A DNA stretch of 44,774 nucleotides, filler included, from Catajapyx aquilonaris (taxonomy: Eukaryota), in assembly GCA_000934665.2 (NCBI GenBank). It is 2 parts of 2 records of this genome, joined end to end, with 100 filler letters (N's around TTAATTAATTAA, not from the genome) between each part and the next. Parts side by side here need not be neighbours in the genome. Positions count along the whole stretch, not along the records: positions 22,654 to 44,774 come from KZ539438.1; 1 more part is not named here. One strand, written 5' to 3'. The notes under the pieces are model-generated. The model was not told the DNA's origin. It saw only the letters and a program-made list of their open reading frames with translations, and searched no databases. Positions 22,554 through 44,774 of this stretch are shown piece by piece (the first letter of the stretch is position 1; each line of letters begins with the position of its first letter). The position numbers and the translations under genes were made by a program.

Positions 22554-22653
22554 NNNNNNNNNNNNNNNNNNNNNNNNNNNNNNNNNNNNNNNNNNNNTTA
22601 ATTAATTAANNNNNNNNNNNNNNNNNNNNNNNNNNNNNNNNNNNNNNNNNNNN
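22554..22653. other. Artificial 100-bp assembly spacer
   Basis: Exactly 44 N + TTAATTAATTAA (stop codons in all six frames) + 44 N. Confidence 0.9.
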
Positions 22654-23570: not shown

Positions 23571-23670
23571 ATGACTTCAACAGAGGTGGAAACCAAGCCT
23601 GACACTTGGACCCCACATCATGGGGCATTTATCTGGGGGAAATGGAGAAACCAGAGATTGTGGTGGCCAG
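23571..23670 (+). CDS. DNMT3: DNMT3-like exon, PWWP N-part (GAFIWGKWRNQRLWWPG)
   Basis: WGK...WWPG signature; donor gttagt at 23671; acceptor tcattcag ends at 23548. Confidence 0.9.
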
Positions 23671-26600
23671 GTTAGTACTGTCCATGTCTTGAGCTTGCAT
23701 GATAGTGAATGCCCGCATAATGAATACTGTATAAGAGTGTTAATTTTCTTCTCTCAATGATATTTCATCAAATTATTAGGGATAATTGTTGGAGCAAGTC
23801 ACTGCTTGATGAAGCAGACCAAGGTTGGCCATGAATGGGTGTTCTGGTTTGGTGACCATTCCGTGTCTGCGGTATGTATGTGTACATATTGATTGTGATA
23901 TATCTATAATTTTTGTGGTAGTGCAAACTGTCTTCAAAAAGTTTCTGTCCGAAGTTCTATTTTGTAGTTTACACATATTCATTAACCTGTTTTAACTACT
24001 TATTACTGTAATTCCACTATGATTACTAGGAATGAAATCATGCTGGGGCTTGCAGTCACACTGGTGTATGTGGCATATATGTTTTCAGGATGTAAAACTA
24101 TGTAGAACAAATGCTCCACAGGCATGTTTCTCACCTGCATCCCAATTGCTCCCTGTTTTAGCAATTTGTTCTGACCAGTGAAGTGGTGGTACATATACAA
24201 TATTGGCGGTCAATCCTGGATGCCTATTCAATATGGAAGGCTTCGTACTTTCTCCCTGTAGCAGTATTATACCCTACCCCAACCCCCGCAACTCCCATGA
24301 TCTGGTTGTGATCTTACAGAGTCTCTGCCAGCCTGGAATTTGGCACTGCCGCAGCCCCACAGGCATCTTATGATTTGGGCGGATGCCTGAACCAACCTAA
24401 GCCTTCCTTTCCCCACCAGCTGCGTCCATGCTACTTTCACGGATTCCCAGCCAGCCACCCGAATCTGTGGGGCACCGCCAATGCCAAATTCTTGGCTGGC
24501 AAGACTCTCTAAGTTCATATCCGTCACCATAAGGCTAGGCTGGGAGTTGCGGAGGAGCTGCCGTACCCGAACTGTCCCTAACCTAATCAATATCTGCAGT
24601 AAGGTAACGAGTTATTTGTCTCTTAGAAACACAGCTAATGGCAGAGGAAGCCCTATTTATGCTCAAGGAGGCTTACCCTGTTCATTGCGTGACAAAATGC
24701 ATCCTTTCCCGAAGCCTTCTGCCACCTTACTTTCCTACCCCCCCCCCCCCCCCCCCCCCCNNNNNNNNNNNNNNNNNNNNNNNNNNNNNNNNNNNNNNNN
24801 NNNNNNNNNNNNNNNNNNNNNNNNNNNNNNNNNNNNNNNNNNNNNNNNNNNNNNNNNNNNNNGGTGATAAAGGATGTCTTCCTAGAAAATCACTGTATAT
24901 TTCACACTAATTCCAACTTCTTACCAACACTGTAATCATTTAGATTTTGCTGTAAGGAAATCATGAGGGCTCCAAGAGGGTAAAATTTTTCTTTTTAAAG
25001 CAGTGACTATTCAAGGAAAACGCTGATGAGTTTTCTTTTAGTCAAGGGTTGGAGGTCCACTTAAAGGCAGGTGCCATGCTTGACCTTTAGTCTAATGCTG
25101 AAATACAATACTTTTGTGATATTTGGGCATTTTCTGACTGGGCTGAAGACTGAAAATTCACAGAAACTGCTCTTCTGAGATTGAAAATAGATCGGCAATA
25201 TTCCTGAATTTATTTTGAAATTTATTATGAGCACAGCATCTTATATGAAACATCATCATTTTTAAGTACTATGCGTATGATCCATTGCAAGATGGCTGCT
25301 GGTACATGCACACATCTGTAGATTGTGACCTTCAATCTGGCAAGCTGGTTCTTGGATTTTATGATGTGTCTTGTGTGAAAAATATTGTGATTTTAGACAG
25401 CCCTCTTGCCTTTATTTGGAGTTTGCCACGAACAGGAGGAACTAGCTAGTATTGGTGTCACAACCTTGTGTTTTTTGACTTTTTTTAAAGTCATGAAAGT
25501 GTGTTTTGAGACACGTTAAGTGGGGTTTACACAGGCGCTTTGACTTCGACTCTCTCCTAGTCATAGGGATCGGATCCCCTTTTCAGACGGAAGTCTGCTC
25601 TTCGATGTCCTGAGCCCCCTCAACACCCTGTTGACACCGACCCTGCCCCCCTGAGGTGGTGAGGTGGTGGGGACAGGTTTTTGTGGAGGGGGTGGTGGGT
25701 GGGAGGCAGTGAGTGAGACGGGAAGACACCACTAACCATTCAGAGAGCCGGGTTCTGTCCGACTGTCCCTTCACACAGTCAGACAGAACCTGAATCTAAA
25801 ATATCAATTAATTTTTTTCTAATAGTGTATAAGTGGAAAATTGTGCCAAAACTACATTTAATTGTGGAGAAACTAAAGTTTCGTCAATTTTTTCACTATT
25901 TTTGCTTGCCCATTGTATGTTGTTAATATTTTACCTTTCTTGTTTGTTTCTCTAGGATGTTATCAGTATGCTTTTCTTCCTTCAGGTTCCAGGTAAAAAT
26001 TTGTGTGAATTTGTACCCAACTTCAGAGATAAGTATAACTCATGCAGGAATCCATTGTACTTTGCGGGAGTAGTGGAAGCTATTAAGGTAAAAATTTGTA
26101 TTTGTATATTTTGTATGTAAAAATTTGTGTAAATAAGGAGAGCTACTGGTGAAAGCTATTAAACGTACTGTGATCTTTTAGGAATGCAAGACTCGAGTGG
26201 AAAAAGAATTAGAAAAGGTAAAATATATACAAGTAGTGTTAAAATCAAGGTGTGATTCTAATATTGATTCTAATATTGTGATTTTACAGCAATGTAAGTG
26301 TGATGTGAAGATGGAGGCAGGAAAGAAGGTAAAACCAGCACATGAAATATATTATGAGAGCCCATGCTTGACACCATACCATGATCTTTTAGAAATGCAA
26401 ATGCCGACTGCAAGTCATCAAGGGTAATTATGTGACAGAACCAGAACTGCTGAGTTGGGCATACAAAGACTTCGCATTACCAAATGGAAGTGTTGATTAT
26501 GACTACTACACACCAGATCCAAGTGAGTAAATATATTGACAGCATGTGATAAATATAACATATTAAAAGAGGCATGTGAATTAAGCTGTTCATCATTATA

Positions 26601-29600
26601 TATCATAATTCAATTTTTAGTGGATTTGCAAGAGCTGCATTTTGGGTTGATAAGGCACACAATATACTGTACAAATATCCATGCACATAAGCCTATAGGA
26701 GATTAGTATTGGGAAATAATGGATCAGGATGACTGACCAAAGCGTCTTGTTATACCACTGTCAGCTGAATAAGGTAGCTCCCACCCACAGCCCTATATGG
26801 GTGGGCGCTTCATTTTGAACCTGAGCAGCTTACTTATGTGTATTAAATAATTTTATGGTTTCATTAGAAATTTTTGTTCATGCTTGTAGTCACTAATAGT
26901 GTTGATCCTTTTGTGTTTTGCTATGTGTTAACTGAGAAACAATATTGACAATGAAGGGATGAAAGGATTCTCTTTCCAGGATCATTTGCTTCTCTGATCA
27001 CATTGATTTTCTTATAGCTGGTTCATTTTCAAATTCCAGTCCAGATTTGGCATAAGATTTTAGTGTGTGCCTTTTTGCATGCCACTGACTTTGCTTGCAT
27101 TGTCTGGGGTGATTAATTCATCGAATCTTACCCATCCCTCTTCTTTGGATTGCCAACATGGGCACAGAGGCACCCTCTATTTACAACCACATCATCTTAA
27201 TAATAAACCAATTAAGGTGTGGGATAACACTTGTACTGCATTCAACAATTATTTCTAGTTTGAACAGTTTTGGGTTGGGATTGTAAATGAAAATTCTCTT
27301 AGTGGAGTTCAAGGTGCAGCTATAGTGCTGTCCAGAATCAAGTATTTACAGGACCCTTTTCTGTTCCAGCACACCCAATACCACATGGCATTGCAAACGA
27401 CATCAAACTTGCAAGAACAAAAAGCAAGGATCAACTGAAAAATGATCCTGCACCTAAAGTAGCAGAGAAGAAAGCTACAAATGCAAAAAGTGCTGTCGCC
27501 GAGAGAGATGTTCGTTTGCCATTGAGAAGGAACAGAGTAACTGAAGCAACCCCAGACCCCCGTGGAGATGGGAAGCAATTGAGGAGACGCGAGCATTGGA
27601 CGCACAATGGGGAAATTGCTACCAAGAGAGGGGAGCCTTCACGGAGGAGTACCAGACAGATGAAGACTGCTGCACCTATTGTTGTAGAAACAAGTACCTG
27701 TGAAGAACCAGAGAAGGGTGAGAAGATGCTCATAGATAAGGAGGACATAAAATATGACTATGATGAAAAAATGCTGCCTGATGGATCAAATGAGGATTCA
27801 ATCATCACAGCTGCTGTGCAACAATTGACTGATCTCAACAACCTCCAAAATTATAGAATACGGGAAAAAGAACGTATTAGCCACAATGAGAATGGTTATG
27901 GAATAAGTAGCAGAATCCAATGTGCTAATGGCAACAGGGAACCAAATCCACCTGGCAGTTCCTTTTCTGGGAATCCACTACCCACTGGCAGTGCTGTAGA
28001 GAGTTTGAACACCCTGTTGATGAATGAGCGAACCATACAAGAAACTCCTCATCAGGGAGTGAATGAATTTAATGATACATTTGAGACTGTCACAATTGAA
28101 GCGATCAAAATTTTGGAACAAAAATGTAACGAGAATGTCAACTGTAGAGGGGATGCAAGACCAGCACATGACCATCCAGATGCAACTGTAGCCACTAGGA
28201 ATTCAGGCGAGCCTATGAATATTTCTAAGAGCCCACTTGTTCGTAAGGACGGTTCATGGCATGATGAGAGATTTACACTAGGAGGGGGAAATAATGATGG
28301 ACGTGCTAATTACATAAAGTCTCCTTGCAAGCGAAAACAAGAGGAAAAATTGGATGACAGTGTCCCACAGAATTATAAAATCAGTCGAGGCTCTAAAATC
28401 AGTCGAGGTGTTCAACCAGTTGTTCGACTGGAAATGATTAATGTGTCAGACGATGGGCAAATAATTCGTGCAGGACAAACAAATCCAGCAGTCAGTACTG
28501 AAAAGAATGCTGAAGCAGTGACATCAAAGTACTCTCTTTCAAGACGAATACGGCGAAGTGTCCTAACAGATGATCATCCAGTGAATGCCTTGAAAGATAA
28601 GACAGAAATGGGTGGATGTAATGAATCAAACATGAAAACTGGTCATGTTTCCCAGAGTGTGTGTGAGGAAATACCCAAGGACACAAATAACTCTCTTGAA
28701 AAGGATGCTTTACCTAGGACAGAAGAGATAGAGAAGGCAAATTCCCGTATAAGGAATAGTCCTGCAAAGCCTAGGACCAATGTAGATGATGCTCACCAGT
28801 TGGATGGAGCCAAAGCAGTTGTTGCTGATGGGAACGCTGGCTCACAAAGTAACACTATTACAGAGACTTGGTCAGCAGGCGTAAGTCAGGCAAGTAGTTC
28901 TACTGAAAAAGACTATCCCAGACACCAGGCACGATCTCATGAAGATAGAGATTCGAAAACTGAAGAAGCACACAAGAAAGAAATGATAATTGATTATAGA
29001 AAAGATGAGTCAGTTAAAGTGCATCAGCATGAAGAACAAAGGAGCAGCATTCAGAAGAAAACTGTGTCTGGAGTCCAAGATTCAGGAAAGAAGGCAAAAG
29101 AAGATGGCAGAAGAACTGATAAAACAAATGCAACAAAACCCCATAGTTCTACTTCAAAGCTAGGGAGTGACAGAGTACAACATGTTGACAATCCACTGAA
29201 GCATAAGGAAGGTATGGCACATCGTAAGTGGACAGGCTCAGAGGCAGGAAAGGCAAGCTCAAAAAGAAAGCAGGAAGTACCTGGAGAATCAGCTGGAAAA
29301 ACTAGTAGCATGACTCACAGTGAATTTCTGCGGCAGCGATTTATGAATGAAGGTGAAGGTAAGTTACCTATGGATTTGAATACTTCTGAAATGGTTACTG
29401 GTATCTAATTCTGATAACAGTGGTTCTTAAATGTGTTGCATGTAGGCAGTGGTGAGCACAGCTAACCGAAAGTTTAGCTTTGCTAACAGCTAATCAGCTG
29501 ACTAAACCAGTTGACTTTGCTAAATCACTGCCGCTGAACAGCTAGAAATAGTAGTGGAAGCTGACGCTAACTTTTATTATATGCATTTAGCCTTTTTGGC

Positions 29601-32600
29601 TCTGCGACCCTTTAAAATATAAAAACAGATCAAGAGTGCTAGAGCCTAGAGACCACTGGTACACACACGCCTTATTTAGTTATTTAATGTTCCTTACAAA
29701 AAGCAAAATAGTTGAATGGATTGTAACAAAAGTATTACATTTTACAAGGGCAAGTCAAAACAAATTGAAATTGATTTTTTATGTGACTGGCTGCATGTGT
29801 ATCCTGGTCCTGCAACATTTTGCTGTAATGTCATATTGTTATTGCCTCATTTGTACCTGCCTTTAGTTGCTTAGCCGTATGTTCTACTGAGTGACCATAT
29901 TTGATCAGTGTTTTGGTGTTTTTTTAAAAGGCTTCTATTTTATGTTGCAGGAAGTGCAGTAGATAAGGTGCGAGCCCATCACCTGAAGATAGACGACATA
30001 TGCATTGCTTGCAGAGTGCTGTCAGCTGAACCATCTGAATGTCATCCATTCTTTGATGGAGGAATCTGTGAAAAGTGCAGGAAGAAAATTATCAAAACCC
30101 TTTATGTTTGCGGGGAAGACGGGACCAGTGTAAGTGCACTGTTTATTTTATTGCAGTCAGTTATTGCATTAGCTCTTGGTTATTGAGATGTCATTGATTA
30201 TTATGTAATGAGTGAGTTTACTGTCTCATTTATCAAATAATGGCATACCAATAAAACATGGTCCAGATTGAGAAGTTGCTAATCTAGAGGCTTTGCTAGA
30301 CTGGTAAGTGTAGGTTGGGGGTTTCTCATTACTTCTTTGACTGGGAAATTTAGTCTTGCATTAGAATACCAACATCTGAATCACATAGGAATGGGAAAAT
30401 CTGCTGACCTAGTAGGTCTACACTACTGGAGCAAAAAGAGAAGTACGACAAGTGTCGTTACTGCAAACTTATTTGTATGTGATTTCTGTAATATACCATG
30501 TACATTGAGCCCCTGTTTCCGAGCCACCGGTTCATGATTCACAGTGTCAGTTACCCGAGGTTTTAAAATACGAAAGAGCTATTAATGAAATATCCAACCC
30601 ACTGGGGTACGACAATAATAATTTTTTAAAATCATTAAATATTCAATGTTGTCAGTCTCATTTCCGTTTTCCAAGGATCCCCAAGGACACCACACTTGAC
30701 CTTGGCACATAGAGTGAACCCAGAAAATCAGCAGTGACTGGTCACCATAAGTAGACCAAGACTATGCAGTATTATATTATATACAGGGTCCGCTGAATCT
30801 GAATCCAAAAACCATTTGTCATCTCTGTTGTGGTTTAGGCCCTGATACCTGTCCACTTACATATGGATGGGCAGAGCCTTTCTATAATCCCTTTTTTAAT
30901 GAGGAAAAGTCTAAAAGTTTGGACAGTGTTATCCTGGAGCTACATAACCATCAGGCTCTGGCAAGGTGAAAAGTTGCAGTACCTTTAACTTGCTGGAGTG
31001 CTCATGGTTGCATTGCATCAGATTGTGTTGGTACGTCTGACACTTTTGGCATGCAGCACATACATATGCTGTTGTTGTTCTTTCAGCGTCACTGTATCAT
31101 CTGCAGTGAAGCCAAACAAGTCATTACCTGTTCAAAACGCACTTGTAACAGGTAGTACCTTTACTTGAGTCATAGAGTGGCTGTGCAGAATTACTGAACA
31201 TGGTTAAAATATGAACCTCTTTCACCCATAGTACCTTTTGCAAGAAATGTTTGAAGGCCTTAGCAGGCCCAGAAGAAGTGGAAATGATATTGGGAAGTGA
31301 CCTGACAGTGTGGCGTTGTTACTTGTGCAGGGATGACTATGAAAAAGTGGATTTACTCTCCAAGCGGAATGGATGGCAGCGTTATGTATGTAAATTAAGT
31401 AACTAATGCAGTTACAGTGACATGATATTAAATATTTTGTTATTTCAGGTAATCAAGCTGTACTCACCTTTTTACTACATAAGTCACAAAAATGTGTCTT
31501 ATAAGATTCGTGAAATGCGAGTTCTCTCTGTTTTTGATGGGATTGGAACAGGTAGAGTAAAAGGAGACATTGTGATTGCATGATAGGTACCAGTTACAAC
31601 CAGTGAGGATTTTGAGAGGGCTGGAGAATGTCAAGTACAATTTGCTTAGTGTGTGCATGAGATGGAAAATATAATGTGGCATTGCTGCAGAAGTGACATA
31701 GGAATGTCTTGTGGTGGGCAACATGTAAGGATTCAAATATATCATAGATTCAGTGCAGATCAATATATTTTTTCAACAACTTGGCGTTTCATTTACAGGG
31801 TGTTTCAGAGTCACAGGGTCAAGCGCGCGCAAGGGGGTGGGGAAAAATCGTAGGTGGCGACAACCCCGGTCGGTTTTATAAAACAATTAGAAATACGGCA
31901 GTAATCAATTTATTTATTGCGGCTGCACTGCGTGACATCACATCCTTTCTATTCGAATTGAGTGGCGCGGAGTGGCAGGTTGAACCTGGTTGAACGGCTT
32001 TTTAGCCTTGCGGGTTGCACTGAAAATGGCGCTCTCATGCTACACTGGCAGGGTACTGAACACACTACTGTACAGTAGTACACTAATTTGTACAGTACCC
32101 TGCCAGTGTAGCATGAGAGAGCCTTTTCCGGTGCAACCCGCAAGGCTAAAAAGTGATTAACCTGCCAGTTCACGCCACTCAATTCGAACAGAAAGGATGT
32201 GACGTCACGCCGTACTGACGTAATAAATAAATTGATTACTGTCGTATTTCTAATTGTTGTATAAAACCAACTGGGGTTGTCGCCACCTACGATTTTTCCC
32301 CACCCCCTCGTGCGCACTTGACCCGTGACTGAAACACCCTGTATAGGGCAGGGTTTATGTATTTTTAAAACGGACAAATATTTAAAATAATGTGATTTTT
32401 CAACCAGGGCTGTATGTGTTGGATAAATTGGGACTTAAAATTGAGAGGTACCTGGCTGCTGAAAATGATGCAGATGCCCAGTGTGTAACTGCCCTGAAAT
32501 TTGGAGACAGAATCAGGCCCCTGGGCCCTGTTGAGAATGTGAGCAGTGCAGAACTGGACAGACTGGGACAGATTGACCTGGTCATTGCCAATATACCCTA

Positions 32601-35600
32601 CACTGCTGCAGAGACACCTCAGGCAGCTGCTGGTGAGTGGTGCCAAAACTTGTCATTTGTGTTGCAGATGGTGCAGATGGGATTCGACTGTATAAATAAT
32701 GCACTCTTATCCACTCCACAGATATTATGAATATGTTCCATGAATACCATCGCATATTACGATATGTGCAGATCCGCAACAATGGCCATCAAGTTTTCTG
32801 GTTGTTTGAATGCATGACAATGGAAAAGAAGGACCAGGACATTATGAGTAGGTGAGTTGCAGGGGTCAGGGTATGTACATTTTTTTTTTTTTTGTAAATA
32901 ATATATGTGTATAAACAATTGCATGAAGGGTCTTACAATGACTAGGAATTTTAGCTTGCAGCATACCCTTGAAAACATGCTAGTGATAAGAGACTCCTTT
33001 ACATGAATCCTTTGGGTGGAATCCCCCATCCTTGTCTCCTCCTGCCTGCAAGCTACCCCTGGCAGGTATCCCCAAAGCATGTTCCATTTACGGACCTTAT
33101 AATAATAGAACATTTTCTGCCAAGGTTGCAATCATACATGCTATGCAATTGACTAGATTCAGGATTAGTGTAACTGGCCTGGTATGGGCTCGGAGCTCCT
33201 GTGAGTATGTGAACACATCCTTTTCCACTGCCCCGAGTTTTATCACCAGACACTAAAATTCCTACTGGATACAGGCACATGGATAGGGATGTTTTGGACT
33301 TGCGTTATATTTATTTGACTACTGCATGATGTTAATTACGTTCCTGGAAATAATCATGCATTGTCTGAGTAGTGTGCACATGAGGGAAGGGAAGTGTATG
33401 TTCAGAGTAGGTGTTTCTTTGATTCTTAAAATCTGGAGGTGGGGAGTAAATGTGGATCCTGCAATCTGTTTGTGGTTATCATTTATGTATCTTACCTACT
33501 GTATATCAAAAGTGGACCAGGTTTCAATGATATCTTGACAAAAAGAGGGCATCCATGTGGAGTTACAACCACTTAGTTTGAAAAGGGTGTTCACTCACTA
33601 TTACCTATTTCAAAGGTATACATTGCACAACTTGATGCAGCACCCCCTCCATGGCATATTATTCTGACTGATGATAACTCCCAAGGAGAGAATTGTGAAA
33701 TTTTAAGTTCATTCTGATGGTTGTTGACCACTACAACAGTTTGAGCAGACAGGCTTAGTTACTTGAGTGACAGGTGGTGGACATTGGTCTTGAATGGCAC
33801 TACAGTAGAGCATCGATTATCCGAAACAATTGGGGACTGGGAGTGTTCTGATAACCGATCAGTTACGAAACAAATTGTACTGGTGTCATAGGAGCAATAT
33901 GAAACAAAGAAACAGTGATGTAAAACACAAAACTGTACATTTTGTATCACATGCAGGGATGGAAAAAGAACCGCTTCTTGGAAGGAAGCGGTTCTTTTTC
34001 CATCCCTGATCACATGTCTTAAAAATACATACCTTACAGAGGGGGAAAGCACTGCAGTGCCACAGCACTAGCCGCCGCTTGCGGAACTACATGGCGCGCA
34101 AATTTGAACTTGCCGACTCGAATGCTTTTGGTTAACCAACGTTTCAGTTGATCAGTATTCGGATAATCTATGCTCTATTGTATTTCAAGGCCTCTTCCAT
34201 CTGCTTTGAACTTTGCATTATAATTTCAGTATCCCATTATGGGGAAAGAACCAAAACGTAAGCAATCATACACAAACTGTTTGTCTGTAGTAAATGTTAT
34301 AGTAAAATGATCATGCAAAGATGTGACTCGGGTGTCAAAGCAAGCGCTCTTGTAGCTTAGTGGCAGAGCAAGCACTTGATTCAAGTGTTGACCTGGGTTC
34401 GATTCCTGGCGGGGGCAGTGCTACATATTTACTCAGCCACATCTTGTTGCCTTTTTCACTACATTTTTATTGAAGCTCCGTGTGGACATATGAGAGACAA
34501 ACATTTTGTGAAGAGTTGCAGCACTTTTGCTTACACAAACTGCAGTTTCATTTAAGATAGAGATTGTGAGAATGATAACTTGGTTTTCTTATAACAGGAA
34601 TTGTTTTGAATTGTTTTATGCAGTTGTTTTTGCAAGTATACAACACTGAAATTAGAGATGGGATGGTTCCCCAGGGTAGTTTGAATCCTTGTAAAGCTAA
34701 ACCTTCTCTCTTGGCCCTGAGCAGAGAAGTGAAGGGAGTGCAAATCTGCCCAGACATGTCTGTAGAAAAGTGAAAAACGACATGCCCAGGGAAGTAGGCC
34801 TACGTGTGGAATCTGAAACTGCGTGTAGCTTATATGTAATGCAACTGGCAACTCTCATTGTACAGCACTGTCTAAATCTGCTCAAATGTTTTGATGTAGA
34901 GAGGTTCAACACACACACTTCACAGCCACTTTCTATAATACTAACAGTTATGGGATGTCAGTGTTGTATGAATATTAACGAGCTCCCTGCTCACATAAAC
35001 TACAAAAACTAAGTTGATGTGCAGAGGGTTACGGTATTTATGTGGTCTGAACACTTATTCAAAATTCTACCTTTCAGTTGCCATGAAGAATAGCTGACAA
35101 GAATAGATGCAGTTTAAGCACTGAGATTTTTGTGCCAAAATCTCAGTGTTTTTAAGAAAATTAAGGTACACTTTTGCATTTAGGTTCTTGGAATGCGAGC
35201 CTGTAAATCTGGATCCAGTGATGATTCCCAATACCTATTTTGGGAGATCATTTTGGGGCAACATTCCTGGCTTGCGGGCAACCCTTTGTCCAGAGAAGTT
35301 GGCACCACGGCTGTCTCTTCAAGAGTTTTTAGTTGGAGGTTCCAAGCCCAGGCTGACAGCAGAAGACACCTGCATGCTGCTCACTGTCCCTGAGCCATTG
35401 TCAGGAGGTCCTCCCATCAATGATGGAAGGTTCTTCCCATGTGGCACTACAGAATTCAAGTCCAATGCTTTGTACCCCATGCAGTGGTTCAGTGAGATGG
35501 TGACTGCCTATGGCATGAACAGCCAGTTGGCAGACCTGAATAGGCTCTCAATGGGGACCTGCAGGAGACTGCTCCGCAGAGCCTCCAGCGCCCTGGTCAC

Positions 35601-35658
35601 TGTTCACATCTTGAGAACCCTCACACACTTCTTTTCCTGTGTGGATGAGGATGATTAG
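23571..35658 (+). CDS. DNMT3: DNMT3-family protein (PWWP-linker-ADD-MTase fold), predicted catalytically inactive; 14 coding exons, ~1272 aa (5' end may extend upstream)
   Basis: Hand-spliced exons 23571-23670, 23780-23871, 25986-26087, 26182-26217, 26290-26328, 26393-26522, 27370-29358, 29951-30129, 31087-31151, 31232-31385, 31449-31551, 32408-32632, 32722-32851 and 35184-35658. All introns are GT-AG with compatible phases; total 3819 nt = 1272 codons + TAG. Collinear with DNMT3A motifs: WWPG, WVFWFGD, ADD cysteines, RVLSVFDGIGTG, DLVI, FWLFE, SRFLE, FWGNIPG. Confidence 0.93.
23780..23871 (+). CDS. DNMT3: DNMT3-like exon, PWWP core (IIVGASHCLMKQTKVGHEWVFWFGDHSVSA)
   Basis: WVxWFGD motif of DNMT3 PWWP; ag and gtatgt boundaries; phase 1 in, phase 0 out. 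Confidence 0.92.
24761..24862. other. Assembly gap after a poly-C tract, within a DNMT3-like intron
   Basis: 102 N directly after a C homopolymer. Confidence 0.95.
25986..26087 (+). CDS. DNMT3: DNMT3-like exon, PWWP helical part (VPGKNLCEFVPNFRDKYNSCRNPLYFAGVVEAIK)
   Basis: Pyrimidine tract + ttcag acceptor, gtaaaa donor; resembles the DNMT3 PWWP helix region. Confidence 0.85.
26182..26217 (+). CDS. DNMT3: DNMT3-like micro-exon (ECKTRVEKELEK)
   Basis: gatcttttag acceptor, AAG|gtaaaa donor; 36 nt, phase 0/0. Confidence 0.6.
26290..26328 (+). CDS. DNMT3: DNMT3-like micro-exon (QCKCDVKMEAGKK)
   Basis: gattttacag acceptor, AAG|gtaaaa donor; 39 nt, phase 0/0. Confidence 0.55.
26393..26522 (+). 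CDS. DNMT3: DNMT3-like exon, PWWP C-terminal helix (ELLSWAYKDF...TPDP)
   Basis: LLSWAYKDF aligns with DNMT3A MIEWALGGF; gtgagt donor at 26523. Confidence 0.85.
27370..29358 (+). CDS. DNMT3: DNMT3-like giant exon, ~663-aa low-complexity/disordered linker
   Basis: 1989-nt stop-free frame (ORF track 27516-29408); ttttctgttccag acceptor, gtaagt donor at 29359; phase 1/1 fits both neighbours; rich in S, K, E, D, T, N. Confidence 0.88.
29951..30129 (+). CDS. DNMT3: DNMT3-like exon, ADD GATA-like finger (IDDICIAC...HPFFDGGICEKC...GEDG)
   Basis: Matches DNMT3A IEDICISC...HPLFVGGMCQNC...DDDG; ttgcag and gtaagt boundaries. Confidence 0.95.
30695..30916 (+). mobile_element. Intronic decayed copy of the repeat at 192-400
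   Basis: Manual alignment: AGGGTCC.CTGAATC.GAATCC...GGTTTAGG.CCTGATACCTGTCCAC...GTCTAAAA. Confidence 0.65.
31087..31151 (+). CDS. DNMT3: DNMT3-like exon, ADD PHD part 1 (RHCIICSEAKQVITCSKRTCN)
   Basis: CxxC-x8-C-x4-C spacing as in DNMT3A YCTICCGGREVLMCGNNNC. Confidence 0.92.
31232..31385 (+). CDS. DNMT3: DNMT3-like exon, ADD PHD part 2 (FCKKCL...WRCYLC...LLSKRNGW)
   Basis: Matches DNMT3A FCVECV...WNCYMC...LLRRREDW. Confidence 0.93.
31449..31551 (+). CDS. DNMT3: DNMT3-like exon, MTase motif I (MRVLSVFDGIGTG)
   Basis: Near-identical to DNMT3 IRVLSLFDGIATG. Confidence 0.95.
31796..32341. mobile_element. Intronic Tc1/mariner-type fully palindromic MITE
   Basis: TIR CAGGGTGTTTCAG, ~265-bp inverted arms, TA TSD at 31794-31795 and 32342-32343; CpG largely intact, so probably young. 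Confidence 0.9.
32408..32632 (+). CDS. DNMT3: DNMT3-like exon, MTase motifs II-IV (degenerate: DLVIANIPY)
   Basis: GLYVLDKLGLKIERYLAAE...IDLVIANIPYT aligns with GLLVLKDLGIQVDRYIASE...FDLVIGGSPCN; gtgagt donor. Confidence 0.93.
32722..32851 (+). CDS. DNMT3: DNMT3-like exon, MTase motifs V-VII (MFHEYHRIL...FWLFECM...DIMSR)
   Basis: Aligns with LFFEFYRLL...FWLFENV...DISR; ccacag and gtgagt boundaries. Confidence 0.93.
33803..34180. mobile_element. Intronic mariner/pogo-type MITE
   Basis: TIR CAGTAGAGCATCGATTATCCGAA / TTCGGATAATCTATGCTCTATTG; TA TSD. Confidence 0.8.
33954..34008. mobile_element. 55-bp hAT-type mini element
   Basis: 24-bp perfect TIR CAGGGATGGAAAAAGAACCGCTTC; 8-bp TSD ATCACATG at 33946-33953 and 34009-34016. 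Confidence 0.85.
34346..34417 (+). pseudogene. tRNA-like SINE head or tRNA pseudogene
   Basis: A box TAGCTTAGTGG, B box GGTTCGATTCC, G-U-rich acceptor stem; the anticodon arm is a non-canonical palindrome. Confidence 0.6.
35184..35658 (+). CDS. DNMT3: DNMT3-like terminal exon, motifs VIII-X and stop
   Basis: FLECEPV...GRSFWGNIPG...LSLQEFL...SEM..YG...RLLRRASS..V.HIL..L..FFSCV matches the DNMT3A C-terminus (ends YFACV); TAG at 35656-35658. Confidence 0.93.
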
Positions 35659-36661
35659 GTTAGTCTGTATTTTGTTTTGCCCACCACAAAAATTAATTAT
35701 GAAAAAGGATTCTTCTACCAGAGGTTTTTAAGTGTACTTTTAAAATCTCAACTATTCCATTTCTGTGGATATTGATTTTTGGTTGAAATGGAATTCACAA
35801 TGAACCGGCAAGTCGGGATTTTCTGTATTTACTGGCATGTACAAAAGACCTAGGTTGCTGTTGATAATTTCAAAACTGGGTTATTGGACTTAATGGATTT
35901 GTATGCCCTTATGAGCTAATATCATGTGTTATAGATTTTTATGATTAAATGATTGTAGCCTAGGTTGATTTATGTGCTTGAGAAAATGAGTAGTGAAAGA
36001 GAGCGTCATACAGTTGTGGAAATTGATTTTGAAATTTTTTCTATTTTCAGGCAGTATGAAGGAATGGACATGTGAAATGGAGAGAAACAGTTTGTTTGGT
36101 ATGATTTGATATATTGTTTGAACTGAGCAAATGTGGCTGAGGCCTTGCAGGGGATGGGGTAGGAAAGAACTCATTTGTGGCTAATATATTGCAGGGTTCT
36201 TGGACAGAACAAGAGAAAACCTAAAAGCACCCACGCATTCATGGAAACACCATACTACAACTCAACCCCTCCACACAAGATAATCCTCGGGCAACCAGGA
36301 ATTGAATTCAAACCTTCACCACTCCTGAAGTGCCCCATCATGTTTCCCAGTGAGGAATGGTATAAATATAAGCAAATGTCATTTACTCTGTTTTTATATG
36401 TCGATGACAAATATACCATATAAGAATAGTCATAATCACCATAAGCAGTAGCGCAGTGTTGTTTTACCCAGTGATGTTTTATCCACCACTCCCTAGTTAC
36501 ATTCAGATTGATTGGCCCAATCTGATCTGGGCTTGTGATTGGCCCGCACCTTGTGCATCCTGTCCTGGAAATAGCAATTTTTTGCTATGAAACACCTTTA
36601 TGTCCCTCCCCTGTCTGCCCACCAGCCCATGGACACTTATACTACATTCTGGCGTTATCAG

Positions 36662-36953
36662 CTGCCGAGGCATTTTGCAGCGGGTGCTCGCCGGAGAGCT
36701 CCAGGAGTCATATCGGAGGCCACGATAAGTAGCGACCCTACCGGACTATAGGCTGAACTTTATAGGTAAGAAAGGGGAGGGCTACATACTGGCCCAACAT
36801 GGCCGCCGGCGGCCATGTTGGGCCCCCCAATGTAGCCCTCCCCTTCGTATCTATAAAGTTCAGCCTATAGTCCGGTAGGGTCGCCACTTATCGTGGCCTC
36901 GAAATGTCTCATGGCGCTCTCAGGTGAGCGCCCGATGCAAAACGCCCCGGCAG
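36662..36953. mobile_element. Spacer-less GC-rich palindromic element
   Basis: ~145-bp inverted arms centred at 36807/36808; perfect 34-bp core at 36791-36824. Confidence 0.8.
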
Positions 36954-40440: not shown

Positions 40441-43400
40441 GAGTCTAATCAGGGTTGTGTACTGGTTGTGTTACGGGGTTTTGCAGGGCCATAGCCTTCC
40501 ACTTCTGAGGTCCCGAGTTCGATCCATGGGTCGGACGGGACCGGACGGGACACATGTGGAAGAGTTTCGATGGGTTCTCGCTGTGTCTGCGTGGGTTTTC
40601 TCAGGTTTCTCCTGTTTCCTCCCACTACCAAAAACTCACCACATGAATGCCAGATAGCCTTAGTTGCTTAGGCACAACCAACAAACCAAACCATTGTCAG
40701 CTGATAAAGAAAAACACCCCTTTCCTGCACTGTTAGGGTCCAGTTGCACCGGCTCCAGCAAGGTTTTCATGGGGTTGTGCAACCGACATACCATCCGCTA
40801 AAACTATGTAGTGTGAAATAATATAACTGTGCCTGTGTTTGCATCAGTACATGGGCTTCAAGGCACAACTTCTCAATCAATTCTTGCCTACTGTCACCTA
40901 GTGATGTGTACGTACATTATATGCAGTAACATGTCAGTTATTGACACAACAAACTCACATTACATATAGCCACTGAGCATATACAGTTCCAGTGTGATAT
41001 TTTCTACCTGCCATTATATTACCGTTATTATACCTCTCATAAAGCTGCATGCTGGTGTTGTCAAGGTCGACCAGATTTTAGAAATGCATGATCTGGTGGC
41101 TATACCGGCATGCCGGTATAAGGCAAGGTATGCCAGTATAAGGTGAGGTTTTCACATAAGTTACATTATCCTTTCTGAACTTCACATAATTTGCCTGAAA
41201 ATCGAAATTCACATAAAGGATATTGAAAAGGAACCGAAGCAGTTTGGTGGAGTGAATAAGGTGTTCGACTGCTAATCGGGAGGTCCTGGGTTCGAGTCCT
41301 GGGGCCGGCAATCCTAACCGTGGTTTTCTGTGGTTTCCCATGGTCCCCCCAGGAGAATTCCGGGATTGCTTCCTAAGTAATTAGGCCACAGACACTTCCT
41401 TCCGTCCCTATCCTATCCCAAAACATAAAATGAAAGCAAAGAGTTCCAGTCAAAAAACCAAAATTGCGATGAACTCCCCCCTAAAGAGCCGCCGGCTGAT
41501 AACGGGGTATGAATTATTATTATTATTATATTGAAAAGGCACATTTTCCGAACCATATATCCATACCATATATTGTTTTCAATTGCAGTGTCTGGTAATA
41601 ATCTCTAGATGTAAACAGTATGTTGGAGCAGGAGGTTCCCCTGTCAAAGCAGACTGATGATGGGTTTGGTCACACACTCTACATTTTTTATATGCACTGT
41701 GCAACAGAACCTGCATATTGTCACAGCCTGTACACTCCCCCATTTTCATTGTAATGTTATTTTAGTATGGTACCAGAAGCATTCCAAAAAATTTGGCAAG
41801 GATATAAATTATGGAAATCTACCTCGGTTATTGCAGTGTGCTGGTCGACCTCGTTTTATACCGACATGCGGCTTTATGAGAGGTAATAGTATTATTGTTG
41901 GTGTTGTTGTGTGAGCCAATTGAGGAGTTAATTGCCTAATTATTGAGCTCTCTTTAAGACTCCTCGATGTAATCTATCCATGAAATCCACCCCTGAATGA
42001 CAGCTTTGTTTTTAGCACAAAGCGTTTTGTACTGCCATTAAGTTACATTGTATTTTCATGATGCATTTCAGACACTCTCAGCAGTCATGAGTACAAAGCG
42101 TGTGACCCTCAAGAAGGTGAAGTTACATTACCATTGGACTCACACCTTATCCATGGGAGTTACATGAAGTACAAGATGGTGATCACCCCGCAAGAGACTG
42201 AGAGACCCATGTGCACATTCAAAGTGAAGCCTCCAACTGGCTATGGAGTGTTGGCAACATTGCAGTGGATGTCACTTGCATCTGATAAAAATGGTACCTG
42301 CCTAGATTTTGTTCAGGTAGGTTGCATGATTAAATGAAAGTTCAAAGTTGTAAATTGTTGCATTTATAAGCTTGCACTCAACTAACATATGGTATCTTAT
42401 AACAAGATAATAAAGTTGCGTTCACAGGCTCATGAAAGCCAGTGCTTTCAAGTGCATTCCAAGACATTTTAGCATGGTTGAGAAGTCAGCAGCTAAATGA
42501 AGTGCAAAAATTGGCTTTTGACAAGTTTGTGAACACACCTTTATGCTTGGCCAGAAAAAATCAATCAGCTCTGCTAACTGCATTTAAACTAACTAGATTG
42601 CCAGTTATTAGCCACCTATAATGTGAGACTCTTTCAAAATGTGAGAAGATTGTATATGGAGACTTATCATTAATTGGTAAAGGCTGATCATTTTAAATAG
42701 GGGCATGTAATGACTTAAATCGCAACATGGCATCCTCTCCAGAGAATTGTTCAACAACTTCATATAAGGTGATTTTTCTAACCTGAGTGTCATGTCACAT
42801 GAAGCTGTGTGTTGCTATGTAGTGTATAGATATTTCAATTTCACTTGCGTTTTTTATAAGTCGCTCAAGATCAATACCTCACGAATGCCTCCTCTTTGAC
42901 AACTGTCCCTCTGTTCATTCCTCTGCAATGCTACAGATTTAAGACTTGTCCCAGTGCATCAATACAGAAATGGGCACTGTGAGACAGTTGCAGCTGTGTG
43001 GCCTGTGAAGAACACCATAACATATTGGATTGAATCATTAATAAATCATGATGAGCGAATGCATGCATCTAACATCTTGATCACATGGTGTGTATATACT
43101 GTATATTTTAATCATATTTAAGAGTAATTTTGTCAATCATGAAATTGCTGTAGTAATATTATAACTAGAAGAGGTGATGTTTTGCTGCTGCTGTTGTTGA
43201 TATCATTATTATAATATTATTGTTACTGTTCCAGTTTTTAGATGGGCCTAAAATCATAAGCAAGCCACTCTGTGGAGACAATAAAATTGGGTCAGTGTCT
43301 GGAGACTACCCGTGGTGGGCTAACACATTCAACACACCTGGAACCATGAAAGTAAACTTGATGTCACTGGGAATGGCTTCACATGGACAGAAACGTCGAC

Positions 43401-44572
43401 TTTTTCATGTTGAGATTGTCTTTGTGGCATATAAAGGTAAAATTTTCTGTACCTGAATATTATTAGTGGAAAACCATATTGACCCCTCGTTTTAATGTGC
43501 AACAAAAAATTGATTATGCATGACAAAATGTACAGTAATTCAGAAAGCATGTTTCACCTCCAGAATGAGAGGGCATATCTCAAGTCAGAACTTTCTCCAG
43601 GATTTTGGGAATTGCAGTGGATTGTGACCAAAATATTAGGCAATTGGTCCTTGATTTTTCCTGTTAAAATAAGTAAGAATGTAGGGTGTGAGCAAGAAAC
43701 CAAGTGACAAAGAAATAGTCTCATTGGCGAGAGCAGGAGTGAATAACATGTTATTCACTCCTGGCGAGAGTGATTGACATAGGCATACAAAATCTGACAC
43801 TACAGTTAGGAAATTGCTGTGATTGACATACTGTGTGTGCCCAGTATCAGGTAGAGGTTAGCACCATCACCTGGCTACATATAATTTTATAGACAATTTT
43901 TGAAATATTTTGTAAGACTAGATGGTACAGTTATTGTCCATCCTCTTTATTTTCAGAGTTTGTAGACACTGATTTAACAAACATGGAGTCGGAAATATTA
44001 TTTAAAAACAAACAAAACATTAATTTCATAAAAGCAAAACTTGAATTTGCTGCACTCCGAGGACCACAATTCAGTAAAACAACTATTTTCACAGTATTTA
44101 CATTATTTTGTTATTTAAGTGATGTAGAGGTGATTTAAAGTATATGAGATGATGTTCATAGGTTATGTGCATATTATGTAGTACATCATACATGTGAGCA
44201 TCTGCAGAAGGTCCTGGAACCAATCCCTCATGGATATGGAGGGCTGACAGTGCTTACTTTTGGATTGTGGTAATACCCAGTGTACTTCCACATACTAGTA
44301 CATGTTAATACTGTAGTCAGTTTTCTGTTGTACAGTAAAGTCAGGGCTTTGTTATCATGTTCCAATGGTAGGAGACTATATCAAATTGTTAATATTAACC
44401 AATTTTTTTGTATTCACAGAATGCACAAATTACCTTGGTAATGATTGGCAGCGCTGCTTTGGAACTGATCTGTGCCTCAGAAGCAGTATGTTCTGTGATG
44501 GAATTGTGAGTTGCCCTGGAACTCATTCTGGTCCCACTGATGAATTCTTATGTGGGCCCTCCAATTCACCAG
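40332..44572 (+). CDS. Secreted or membrane protein with signal peptide, CUB-like domain and LDL-receptor class A repeat; 3'-incomplete
   Basis: Exons 40332-40404 (MLTGFISTAALLLCLSPPVHS signal peptide), 42072-42316 (C..F.V.PP.GYGV.ATLQWMSL...CLDFVQ), 43235-43436 (PLCG...IVFVAYK) and 44420-44572 (C..C.....C.....FCDGIVSC.......DE..C). GT-AG introns with compatible phases 1, 0, 1, 1. Confidence 0.85.
40488..40692 (+). mobile_element. 5'-truncated V-domain-like SINE (same family as 38849)
   Basis: Shares AGCCTTCCAC.TCT.AGGTCCCGAGTTCGA.CC and the GCGTGGGTTTTCTC core. Confidence 0.8.
41232..41527 (+). mobile_element. tRNA-derived SINE (different body)
   Basis: B box GGTTCGAGTCC, body GGTTTTCTGTGGTTTCCC..CAGGAGAATTCCGGGAT..AGGCCAC, (ATT)n tail; 12-bp TSD ATATTGAAAAGG. 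Confidence 0.85.
43734..43763. mobile_element. 30-bp perfect palindrome with 7-bp TSD (P-superfamily-like footprint)
   Basis: CAGGAGTGAATAACATGTTATTCACTCCTG flanked by GCGAGAG at 43727-43733 and 43764-43770. Confidence 0.7.
43928..44250 (+). mobile_element. Tigger3/Golem (pogo)-like MITE, decayed
   Basis: Blocks AAAGCAAAACTTGAATTTGC, ACAACTATTT..ATTTACATT, TAGAG.TGATTTAAAGTATA, TAGGTTAT.TGCA and GGTCCTGGAACCAATCCC recall the Tigger3/MER2-group consensus (from memory). Confidence 0.65.
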
Positions 44573-44774
44573 GTAAGAAAAGTAACTTATGACCAATACA
44601 CTATGTTAGCTGATGAGGCAGGATGTCACCTTCTTCATTGATTGATTTGTTTCTCCTTTTGCTGCTGTTAGTATTACCAAGAGTAAATAATTCAGAGTGA
44701 CTGACTTGTGTGACCATCCTTTTGACGCGATGGAATTGAGCATACTCGTTGCCTCCTGGCGGGAGAGGGAGAAC

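Follow-up and report, generated by a model that had tools for sequence, protein, structure and literature searches.

Inactive relatives of DNMT3 that act as helpers were long thought to be a mammalian speciality, represented by DNMT3L and DNMT3B3. Proteins of a comparable kind are already in print from arthropods (Daphnia DNMT3.1 and aphid Dnmt3x), and the gene described here belongs with them and is not a new kind of system. It lies in the latter part of a stretch of 44,774 nucleotides (nt) of DNA from Catajapyx aquilonaris (assembly GCA_000934665.2), termed the window below, of which positions 22,654-44,774 come from KZ539438.1. The gene is well supported as a maintained DNMT3 paralogue that is predicted to be non-catalytic. 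A PWWP and an ADD domain are combined with a degenerate methyltransferase (MTase) domain in a separate gene, as in the 'reader-only' DNMT3 paralogues of arthropods.

Several inactive members of the wider family have been described. Mammalian DNMT3L binds the active enzyme via a hydrophobic interface and stimulates it (Jia et al. 2007, cited in PMC8016896), while the inactive DNMT3B3 is described as the outer subunit of nucleosome-bound DNMT3A2-3B3 tetramers (PMC8891314, PMC7846833, PMC12876729). DNMT3.1 of Daphnia magna is portrayed as a PWWP and ADD protein with a diverged MTase domain that lacks five of six motifs and keeps motif VI; it is expressed and is proposed to work in a DNMT3L-like manner with a PWWP-less active DNMT3.2, and its knock-out is stated to have a phenotype under starvation (PMC8016896; bioRxiv 10.1101/2024.06.27.600920). 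Aphid Dnmt3x is likewise described with PWWP and ADD and without the residues needed for activity (bioRxiv 10.1101/2024.02.14.579807, citing Walsh et al. 2010). According to the same preprint, Dnmt3x has persisted for 106 million years or more beside the active Dnmt3a, is co-expressed with it in germ cells and is hypothesised to be DNMT3L-like, and the duplication is reported to be specific to Aphidomorpha (bioRxiv 10.1101/2024.02.14.579807). Further afield, Arabidopsis DRM3 is presented as a catalytically mutated paralogue that is required by the active DRM2 (PMC2965745), and the account of the Strigamia genome mentions two copies of Dnmt1 that are transcribed although they have lost catalytic residues (PMC4244043). 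A survey of 138 Ecdysozoa is described as scoring only the presence of at least one copy (PMC8821070). Our literature search, which was made without the species name and is weak in that respect, found no publication on this particular gene.

The Catajapyx protein can be set against each of these systems. Like Daphnia DNMT3.1 as described, it represents an arthropod DNMT3 paralogue, in the present case probably expressed, in which PWWP and ADD accompany a diverged MTase domain; unlike DNMT3.1 by that description, it keeps motif I and the Glu of motif II, and its motif VI is altered to ECM. It likewise resembles aphid Dnmt3x as described, where PWWP and ADD also accompany a degenerate MTase domain. 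With mammalian DNMT3L it shares the state of a DNMT3 relative with an ADD domain and a presumably dead catalytic site, but in DNMT3L the PWWP, motif I and the C-terminal part of the fold are missing, whereas the protein considered here has a PWWP, motif I and a full-length fold. DNMT3B3, as described, similarly keeps PWWP and ADD and is inactive; it arises, however, from an active gene by splicing, with a deletion that affects the region of the target recognition domain (TRD) and motif IX and with its catalytic Cys kept, whereas here a separate gene carries substitutions. DRM3 differs further, being a plant protein of unrelated origin with rearranged domains and UBA domains.

Catalytic motifs and dimer interfaces

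The 3′-end stretch 31449-35658 belongs to a 12-exon gene of 1247 codons that runs from an ATG at 23571 to a TAG at 35658. Its last four exons join to 933 nt, or 310 codons plus TAG, with 0 internal stops, while the joined sequence read in its other two frames contains 17 and 20 stops; the earlier claim of a spliced frame without stops, made in the sequence-only reading of this DNA, is borne out. The joined 310 amino acids match DNMT3s in blastp with E values from 3e-42 to 1e-45, as a C5-MTase fold homologous to DNMT3A/B. Compared with sequences of solved structures, exon 10 has 29 matches (best E 5.3e-6) and exon 12 has 29 distinct matches (best E 3.7e-9); for both exons these are DNMT3A, 3B and 3C chains only, and no DNMT3L chain is among them.

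All C5 methyltransferases use the Cys of motif IV as their nucleophile. At this site the Catajapyx protein reads IPYT (32593-32604), with Tyr encoded by TAC at 32599-32601. IPY stands against SPC in 46/46 active DNMT3s, sampled from sponge to vertebrates, that served for alignment and column counts, and vianipy falls opposite VIGGSPC of DNMT3C and DNMT3A in the structure-sequence alignment; the proposed exchange of the nucleophile for Tyr is thereby confirmed. The remaining catalytic motifs are altered in a similar manner, and the alignments uphold what had been read from the sequence for each of them. Motif VI is ECM (32808-32816), in which the Glu of ENV is retained and the Asn and Val are gone. 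Motif VIII is FGR (35239-35247), yfgrsfwgn lying opposite HRARYFWGN in the structure-sequence alignments, and motif X is RRASS (35575-35589), llrrassalv lying opposite LLGRSWSVPV. The TRD is unrecognisable: lltvpeplsgg is found opposite ITTASNSIKQG of DNMT3B, with no alignment beyond position. All motif coordinates given earlier hold.

Other parts of the domain are kept. Motif I FDG (31533-31541) and the Glu of motif II are retained, as had been claimed, within a conserved RVLS.FDG...E block. Motif III reads GPV (32524-32532), which had been listed among the signs of decay; this does not stand, as active tick DNMT3s also have GPV (LGPVE), and horseshoe-crab enzymes have LGRIE or LGQIE. The loop after motif IV had been judged about 5 residues shorter than usual, and the shortening is real, although its size was underestimated: motifs IV and VI are separated by 35 residues, where 148 of 163 DNMT3s compared have 41-42, a difference of 6-7 residues. 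The TRD region is longer than usual, with 102 residues between motifs VIII and X where most of the DNMT3s have 90-97.

Columns conserved in at least 90% of the 46 active DNMT3s are altered at 35 positions of the MTase domain. Among the losses are the whole GGSPCND loop, the Asn and Val of ENV, the first Arg of motif VIII, HYTD, the invariant Arg before motif X, and the Gly and Trp of motif X. C5 cytosine methylation by this protein is not expected, because a Tyr occupies the place of the nucleophile, the catalytic loop is shortened, ENV is altered and the TRD cannot be recognised.

The two surfaces through which DNMT3 proteins pair are affected to different degrees. In the hydrophobic interface, the Phe of SRFLE (which we take to be F772 in human numbering) and the first Phe of LFFEF are kept, the latter motif reading MFHEY. 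The polar dimer interface builds the central DNA-binding pair in DNMT3A-DNMT3L and DNMT3A2-DNMT3B3 tetramers; here HYTD reads QLAD, and the invariant Arg, presumably R885, is Cys. The central DNA-binding contact thus looks lost and the outer contact partly kept.

An artefact would account for these changes if the region had been wrongly assembled, if the Cys codon had been misread in sequencing, or if an incorrect splice model were hiding active exons. The window does contain gaps of N (22554-22653 and 24761-24862), and the junctions of exons 9-12 are not directly seen in reads. Against this explanation, the alterations concern 35 conserved columns and not one codon, and contigs of a DNA run (X1, which may be the assembly's own source sample) match 32589-33830, the TAC codon included, and 34392-36660 with 0 differences. 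A tblastn search of the window, for which the motif IV-VI cores of 163 active DNMT3s served as queries, matched the two known exons and nothing else at E < 0.01; the next best matches elsewhere (E 0.026-0.05, single queries) are at chance level. There is therefore no second DNMT3-like gene within these 44.8 kb, nor an alternative exon with intact PC and ENV, the alternative that the sequence-only reading had itself named. We consider an artefact extremely unlikely.

Constraint, probable transcription and a second copy

The reader and catalytic domains of the protein have been conserved unequally. Conserved columns are kept at 11/11 positions in PWWP and 18/18 in ADD, compared with 41/76 in the MTase domain. 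Median identity to the 46 active enzymes is 27% for PWWP and 29% for ADD, close to the 28% and 33% found among the 46 themselves, whereas the MTase domain reaches 30% (maximum 37%) against 50% (minimum 37%) among the 46. In a tree of the MTase domain alone, the end branch measures 4.25 changes per column against a median of 0.22. The gene is nevertheless not simply dead, because all 29/29 reader columns, 22 splice dinucleotides and a 3.7-kb frame are kept. The earlier proposal of a maintained non-catalytic paralogue is well supported by 12 open exons, by the contrast between 29/29 and 41/76 columns, and by contigs that break at splice sites.

In DNMT3 enzymes, histone tails are read by PWWP and ADD, and both domains can be recognised here. 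The first 145 amino acids align with the PWWP regions of DNMT3s (best E 7e-23, 37% identity), and this PWWP is N-terminal to ADD; Pfam gave no PWWP match on the four single short open reading frames (ORFs) of the PWWP exons. The ADD matches PF17980 within 29905-30186 (E 5.2e-12, 46 bits, cut-off 26) and PF21255 within 31215-31388 (E 5.2e-5, 23.7 bits, below the cut-off of 27), and its kept columns include every Cys and His column that provides a zinc ligand.

One feature of the PWWP is unusual in its own right. At 23640-23670, an Arg (...QRLWWP) stands two residues before WWP, at a position that is aromatic or His in most DNMT3s and that we take to be part of the methyl-lysine cage (F303 in DNMT3A). 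Given Arg at that site, the histone specificity of the PWWP may differ.

The gene is probably transcribed. A look-up among sequencing runs found none recorded as RNA that contains the stretch. Run X5, which comes from another sample and another study than the DNA runs and is RNA-like by its contig breaks, contains 32% of the sampled words; 46% of its letters continue into sequence that does not resemble the window, where the figure for the DNA run X1 is 1%. Three of the X5 contigs break off no more than 2 nt from predicted splice sites (27370, 29356/8 and 35656/8): 27370 is the predicted acceptor of exon 5, and 29356 lies 2 nt before the predicted donor, those 2 nt fitting either side. These breaks at splice sites, in contigs of a second sample, make transcription probable. 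Parts of the gene have no X5 cover, for example 32903-33706 and 24863-25666, and nothing is drawn from these. X5 depth is 5.77 in the bin 32501-32902, with no differences listed, and the exact piece over TAC is not seen. Of the two elements on which the sequence-only reading leaned, the TAC codon is thus matched by an X1 contig; the splice model is supported at sites elsewhere in the gene, and the junctions of exons 9-12 are not seen.

The same runs reveal a diverged second copy in the genome, which is transcribed and has the same change in motif VIII. One 1761-nt contig of X5 aligns to 35458-35654 and differs there at 21 of 197 nt (about 11% diverged). A variant contig at about 35176-35269 is present both in X5 (depth 16.5) and in the DNA run X1 (26.3 of 62.5); it differs at only 4 positions and still reads YFGRSFWGN. 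Since the second copy keeps YFGRSFWGN, the change in motif VIII predates the duplication. Among the 19 listed differences between the copies, 7 are synonymous and 12 non-synonymous.

These data bear on whether the gene could instead be a decaying duplicate on its way to becoming a pseudogene, with an open frame left over from its past. Such a view can draw on the extreme divergence of the MTase domain, on a partial ratio of non-synonymous to synonymous change of about 0.55 that is not significantly below 1, and on the lack of an orthologue in the protein libraries searched. It is opposed by the absence of stops in the 1247-codon frame, where the other two frames have 68 and 116; if stops were as frequent as in the gene's introns (0.0575 per codon), the last 310 codons would be open with a probability of about 1e-8. 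The intron borders (22/22 canonical), the intact reader columns and the spliced, RNA-like contigs from an independent sample also argue against decay, and the dead state is old, because the motif VIII change is common to a copy that has diverged by about 11%. A pseudogene in the making is a highly unlikely explanation.

The complete gene model is given in table 1. The domain order is PWWP, about 650 disordered residues, ADD and the presumably dead MTase domain, with canonical AG/GT borders at all 11 introns. The start codon at 23571 is provisional and additional 5′ exons are possible; RNA evidence was considered only from 24863 on.

Table 1. Exons of the Catajapyx DNMT3 paralogue and supporting X5 contigs (UTR, untranslated region; positions count along the window).
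Feature	Position	Strand	Content and support
Exon 1	23571..23670	+	Provisional start, PWWP begins (ends ...LWWP-G); model borders, open frame
Exon 2	23780..23871	+	PWWP (...WVFWFGD...); weak tblastn matches 23638-23877
Exon 3	25986..26087	+	PWWP; X5 depth 1.04 (25667-26068), 2.42 in next bin
Exon 4	26393..26522	+	PWWP region ends; X5 depth 2.42 (26069-26470), 0.73 in next bin
Exon 5	27370..29358	+	663-codon K/E/S-rich linker, open frame, no Pfam family
X5 contigs of exon 5	27370-27586, 27890-28470, 28551-28779, 28893-29356		
Exon 6	29951..30129	+	ADD, GATA-like zinc finger; PF17980; tblastn matches from 20+ DNMT3s
Exon 7	31087..31151	+	ADD, first half of PHD finger; all Cys columns kept
Exon 8	31232..31385	+	ADD, second half of PHD finger; PF21255 below cut-off; tblastn
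Exon 9	31449..31551	+	Motif I intact (VFDGIGTG; FDG 31533-31541)
Exon 10	32408..32632	+	Motif II Glu kept, motif III GPV, motif IV ANIPYT (predicted dead), shortened catalytic loop
Exon 11	32722..32851	+	MFHEYHRIL, the helix forming the hydrophobic dimer interface in DNMT3A/3L; motif VI FWLFECM
Exon 12	35184..35658	+	SRFLE, FGR, divergent longer TRD, QLAD for HYTD, RRASS; stop TAG 35656-35658
X5 contig of exon 12	35384-35656		
Inferred 3′ UTR exon, 48 nt	36051..36098	+	AG..GT-bounded; fits unplaced letters in X5 contig
3′ UTR exon, at least to 36624	36195..36624	+	X5 contig resumes 36194-36624, 0 differences

The 3′ end shows a peculiarity of its own. TAG is the last codon of exon 12 and is followed by two introns in the 3′ UTR (35659-36050 and 36099-36194), both read from one X5 contig. 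This contig has 49 unplaced letters between 35656 and 36194, which are fitted by the 48-nt exon together with the 2 last letters of exon 12 if one ambiguous G is allowed. The final junction lies 48 nt past the stop, which could matter for mRNA surveillance or regulation.

Origin and possible roles

Database searches with this protein return DNMT3s at a distance. An exhaustive protein search over 1.84 billion representatives gave 31 matches at E <= 0.001, none at E <= 1e-10, with a best identity of 32%; 25 of the 31 are DNMT3s with intact GSPC, no orthologue was found, Daphnia DNMT3.1 is not among the 31, and there is no aphid protein among the near matches. A word-index protein search returned 331 candidates for the last exon, none at E <= 0.001, and 5 candidates for the ADD exon, none at E <= 1, which is weak evidence that this library holds no close relative. 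In the ESM Atlas, the last exon met only generic methylase-like or unnamed clusters at 0.92. Pfam assigned 0 families to the single MTase exons and the large linker exon, PF00145 being unmatched by any single exon.

The DNMT3B of Argonauta hians presents a separate case, as its precomputed Pfam list is without PF00145 though GGSPC and other motifs are intact. This is probably a gap in the precomputed matches and not a dead enzyme.

A tree of PWWP and ADD places the protein inside protostomes (97 by the Shimodaira-Hasegawa-like approximate likelihood-ratio test, SH-aLRT), separate from the chordate clade (98). Within protostomes it is near chelicerates and myriapods with weak support (81 SH-aLRT), and a pancrustacean placement is not rejected by the approximately unbiased test (p 0.327). 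A chaetognath as the source is rejected, since the six DNMT3s of that animal are reported to lack both PWWP and ADD and no gene-body methylation is reported for it; Strigamia is rejected as well, having a single DNMT3 and a genome sequenced by 454. The G+C content of the window is about 42%, presumably unlike aphid genomes. On this phylogeny, an origin separate from mammalian DNMT3L is safe, because the protein falls within the protostome clade and has the PWWP that DNMT3L lacks; the suggestion that it evolved independently of DNMT3L is upheld on both counts.

The composition of the locus provides evidence on methylation in this lineage. The ratio of observed to expected CpG is 0.35 in the gene span and 0.33 in the coding sequence, compared with 0.77 in 1-23000, and TpG/CpA is in excess in the gene (1.35). 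This pattern fits the mosaic gene-body signature of invertebrates with germline CpG methylation. The lineage therefore probably methylates germline DNA, and the pattern suggests that this gene itself is methylated in the germline.

We favour, with a probability of about 0.6, a role as a non-catalytic, chromatin-reading accessory subunit of de novo methylation. PWWP and ADD would read histone tails, and the MTase-like fold would dock an active DNMT3 via the hydrophobic ('FF'-type) interface. Like DNMT3L and DNMT3B3 in mammals, the protein would then sit on the outside of a hetero-oligomer, and the outcome would be a targeting or tuning of gene-body methylation. An outer-docking, non-catalytic subunit fits because the hydrophobic contact is partly kept and the polar dimer contact is altered. 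Inactivity, heteromerisation and an effect on methylation are each deduced from sequence, and all three should be read as predictions.

A different role would be that of a stand-alone chromatin reader or scaffold that works independently of methylation and recruits, for example, repressors, with the MTase fold persisting as an unpaired structural remnant. The reader domains are indeed the best kept part of the protein (29/29 columns), and the equivalent of F732 is His. In Daphnia, loss of DNMT3.1 is described as altering life-history traits and 2770 genes under starvation, and the authors are noted to discuss methylation-independent roles (PMC8016896). A mere remnant is harder to reconcile with the retention of motifs I-II and SRFLE; the MTase fold itself appears to be used, because 41/76 of its columns are kept and its frame has remained free of stops over a branch as long as 4.25. 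The genome also bears the signature of CpG methylation. We regard a stand-alone reader as unlikely.

Several observations weigh against an accessory subunit of the kind proposed or against the evidence for it. The end branch is long for PWWP and ADD too, well kept as their columns are (1.73, where the median is 0.46). In the FF interface, the second Phe of LFFEF (which we take to be F732) is replaced by His, and the docking surface is thus not fully canonical. Exon 9-12 junctions are not among the listed contigs, and the splice model there combines sequence and homology; the records do not state of what kind run X5 is. The comparison with the second copy over 35458-35654 gives changes at 5/43 synonymous and 10/155 non-synonymous sites, a ratio of about 0.55 from small counts with 6/21 differences unlisted, which is compatible with purifying and with relaxed selection alike. 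Lastly, the knock-out phenotype of Daphnia DNMT3.1 is, in the account given, not tied to methylation (PMC8016896).

The retained motifs I and II raise the further question of whether the protein has taken up a new job that depends on S-adenosylmethionine (SAM), either as a sensor of SAM or S-adenosylhomocysteine (SAH) or as a methyltransferase acting on a substrate for which a Cys nucleophile is not required. FDGIGTG and the Glu of motif II are unaltered, GPV equals that of active tick enzymes, and in this the protein is unlike Daphnia DNMT3.1, which is described without five of six motifs. However, the G-G of motif IV and the Trp of motif X, which line the cofactor pocket in DNMT3A, are changed, and the TRD is unrecognisable. 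We know of no such change of chemistry in the DNMT3 family, and this too counts against the idea, which we hold to be very unlikely.

An extension of the accessory-subunit reading may be sketched, although it is doubtful. The gene could represent a further independent split between reader and catalytic functions in arthropods, after those of Daphnia and aphids, in which the dead lineage was duplicated after the loss of catalysis; the kept motifs I-II could then bind SAM or SAH and couple the supply of methyl donor to the targeting of gene-body methylation.

Genomic surroundings and implications

The introns of the gene and its flanks are rich in repeats. Intron 9 contains a foldback element of about 510 nt (31816-32324) with nested inverted repeats: the outer arms, 31816-31981/32159-32324, have 90% complementarity, and the inner arms, 31998-32073/32078-32153, have 89%. 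The depth of DNA contigs over the foldback is about 32,500, against 39 for unique sequence, as of a very abundant repeat that resembles a miniature inverted-repeat transposable element. Other high-copy repeats are found at 33810-34180 and 36700-36900 (DNA depth about 4,600 and 20,000 against 39), and one at 33940-34010 is palindromic by eye. In intron 11, ARAGORN calls a tRNA-like element at 34346-34417, labelled 'Asn' with an odd anticodon, ATT. Because contigs of X5 and X1 show loose ends on both sides, the data suggest a tRNA-derived short interspersed nuclear element and not a working tRNA gene.

Downstream, CpG observed to expected falls to about 0.22 at 42001-44774, where another gene seems to begin. 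Open frames on the + strand at 42062-44592 resemble, by eye, CUB and LDL-receptor class A exons of this neighbouring gene; none of them matches Pfam at E <= 0.001 as a single ORF. Pfam on 86 ORFs of the flanks gave only a sub-threshold chance match, PsiE. The step in CpG content between 1-23000 and 23571-36700 could help to delimit transcription units in this genome.

For the DNMT3 family, Daphnia DNMT3.1 and aphid Dnmt3x suggest that arthropods invented helpers similar to those of mammals. One more example would lend weight to the idea that de novo methylation has repeatedly arrived at a separation of chromatin reading and catalysis. The pattern of residues in the Catajapyx protein, in which motifs I-II are kept and motifs IV, VI, VIII and X, the TRD and the polar interface are lost, gives concrete biochemical hypotheses.

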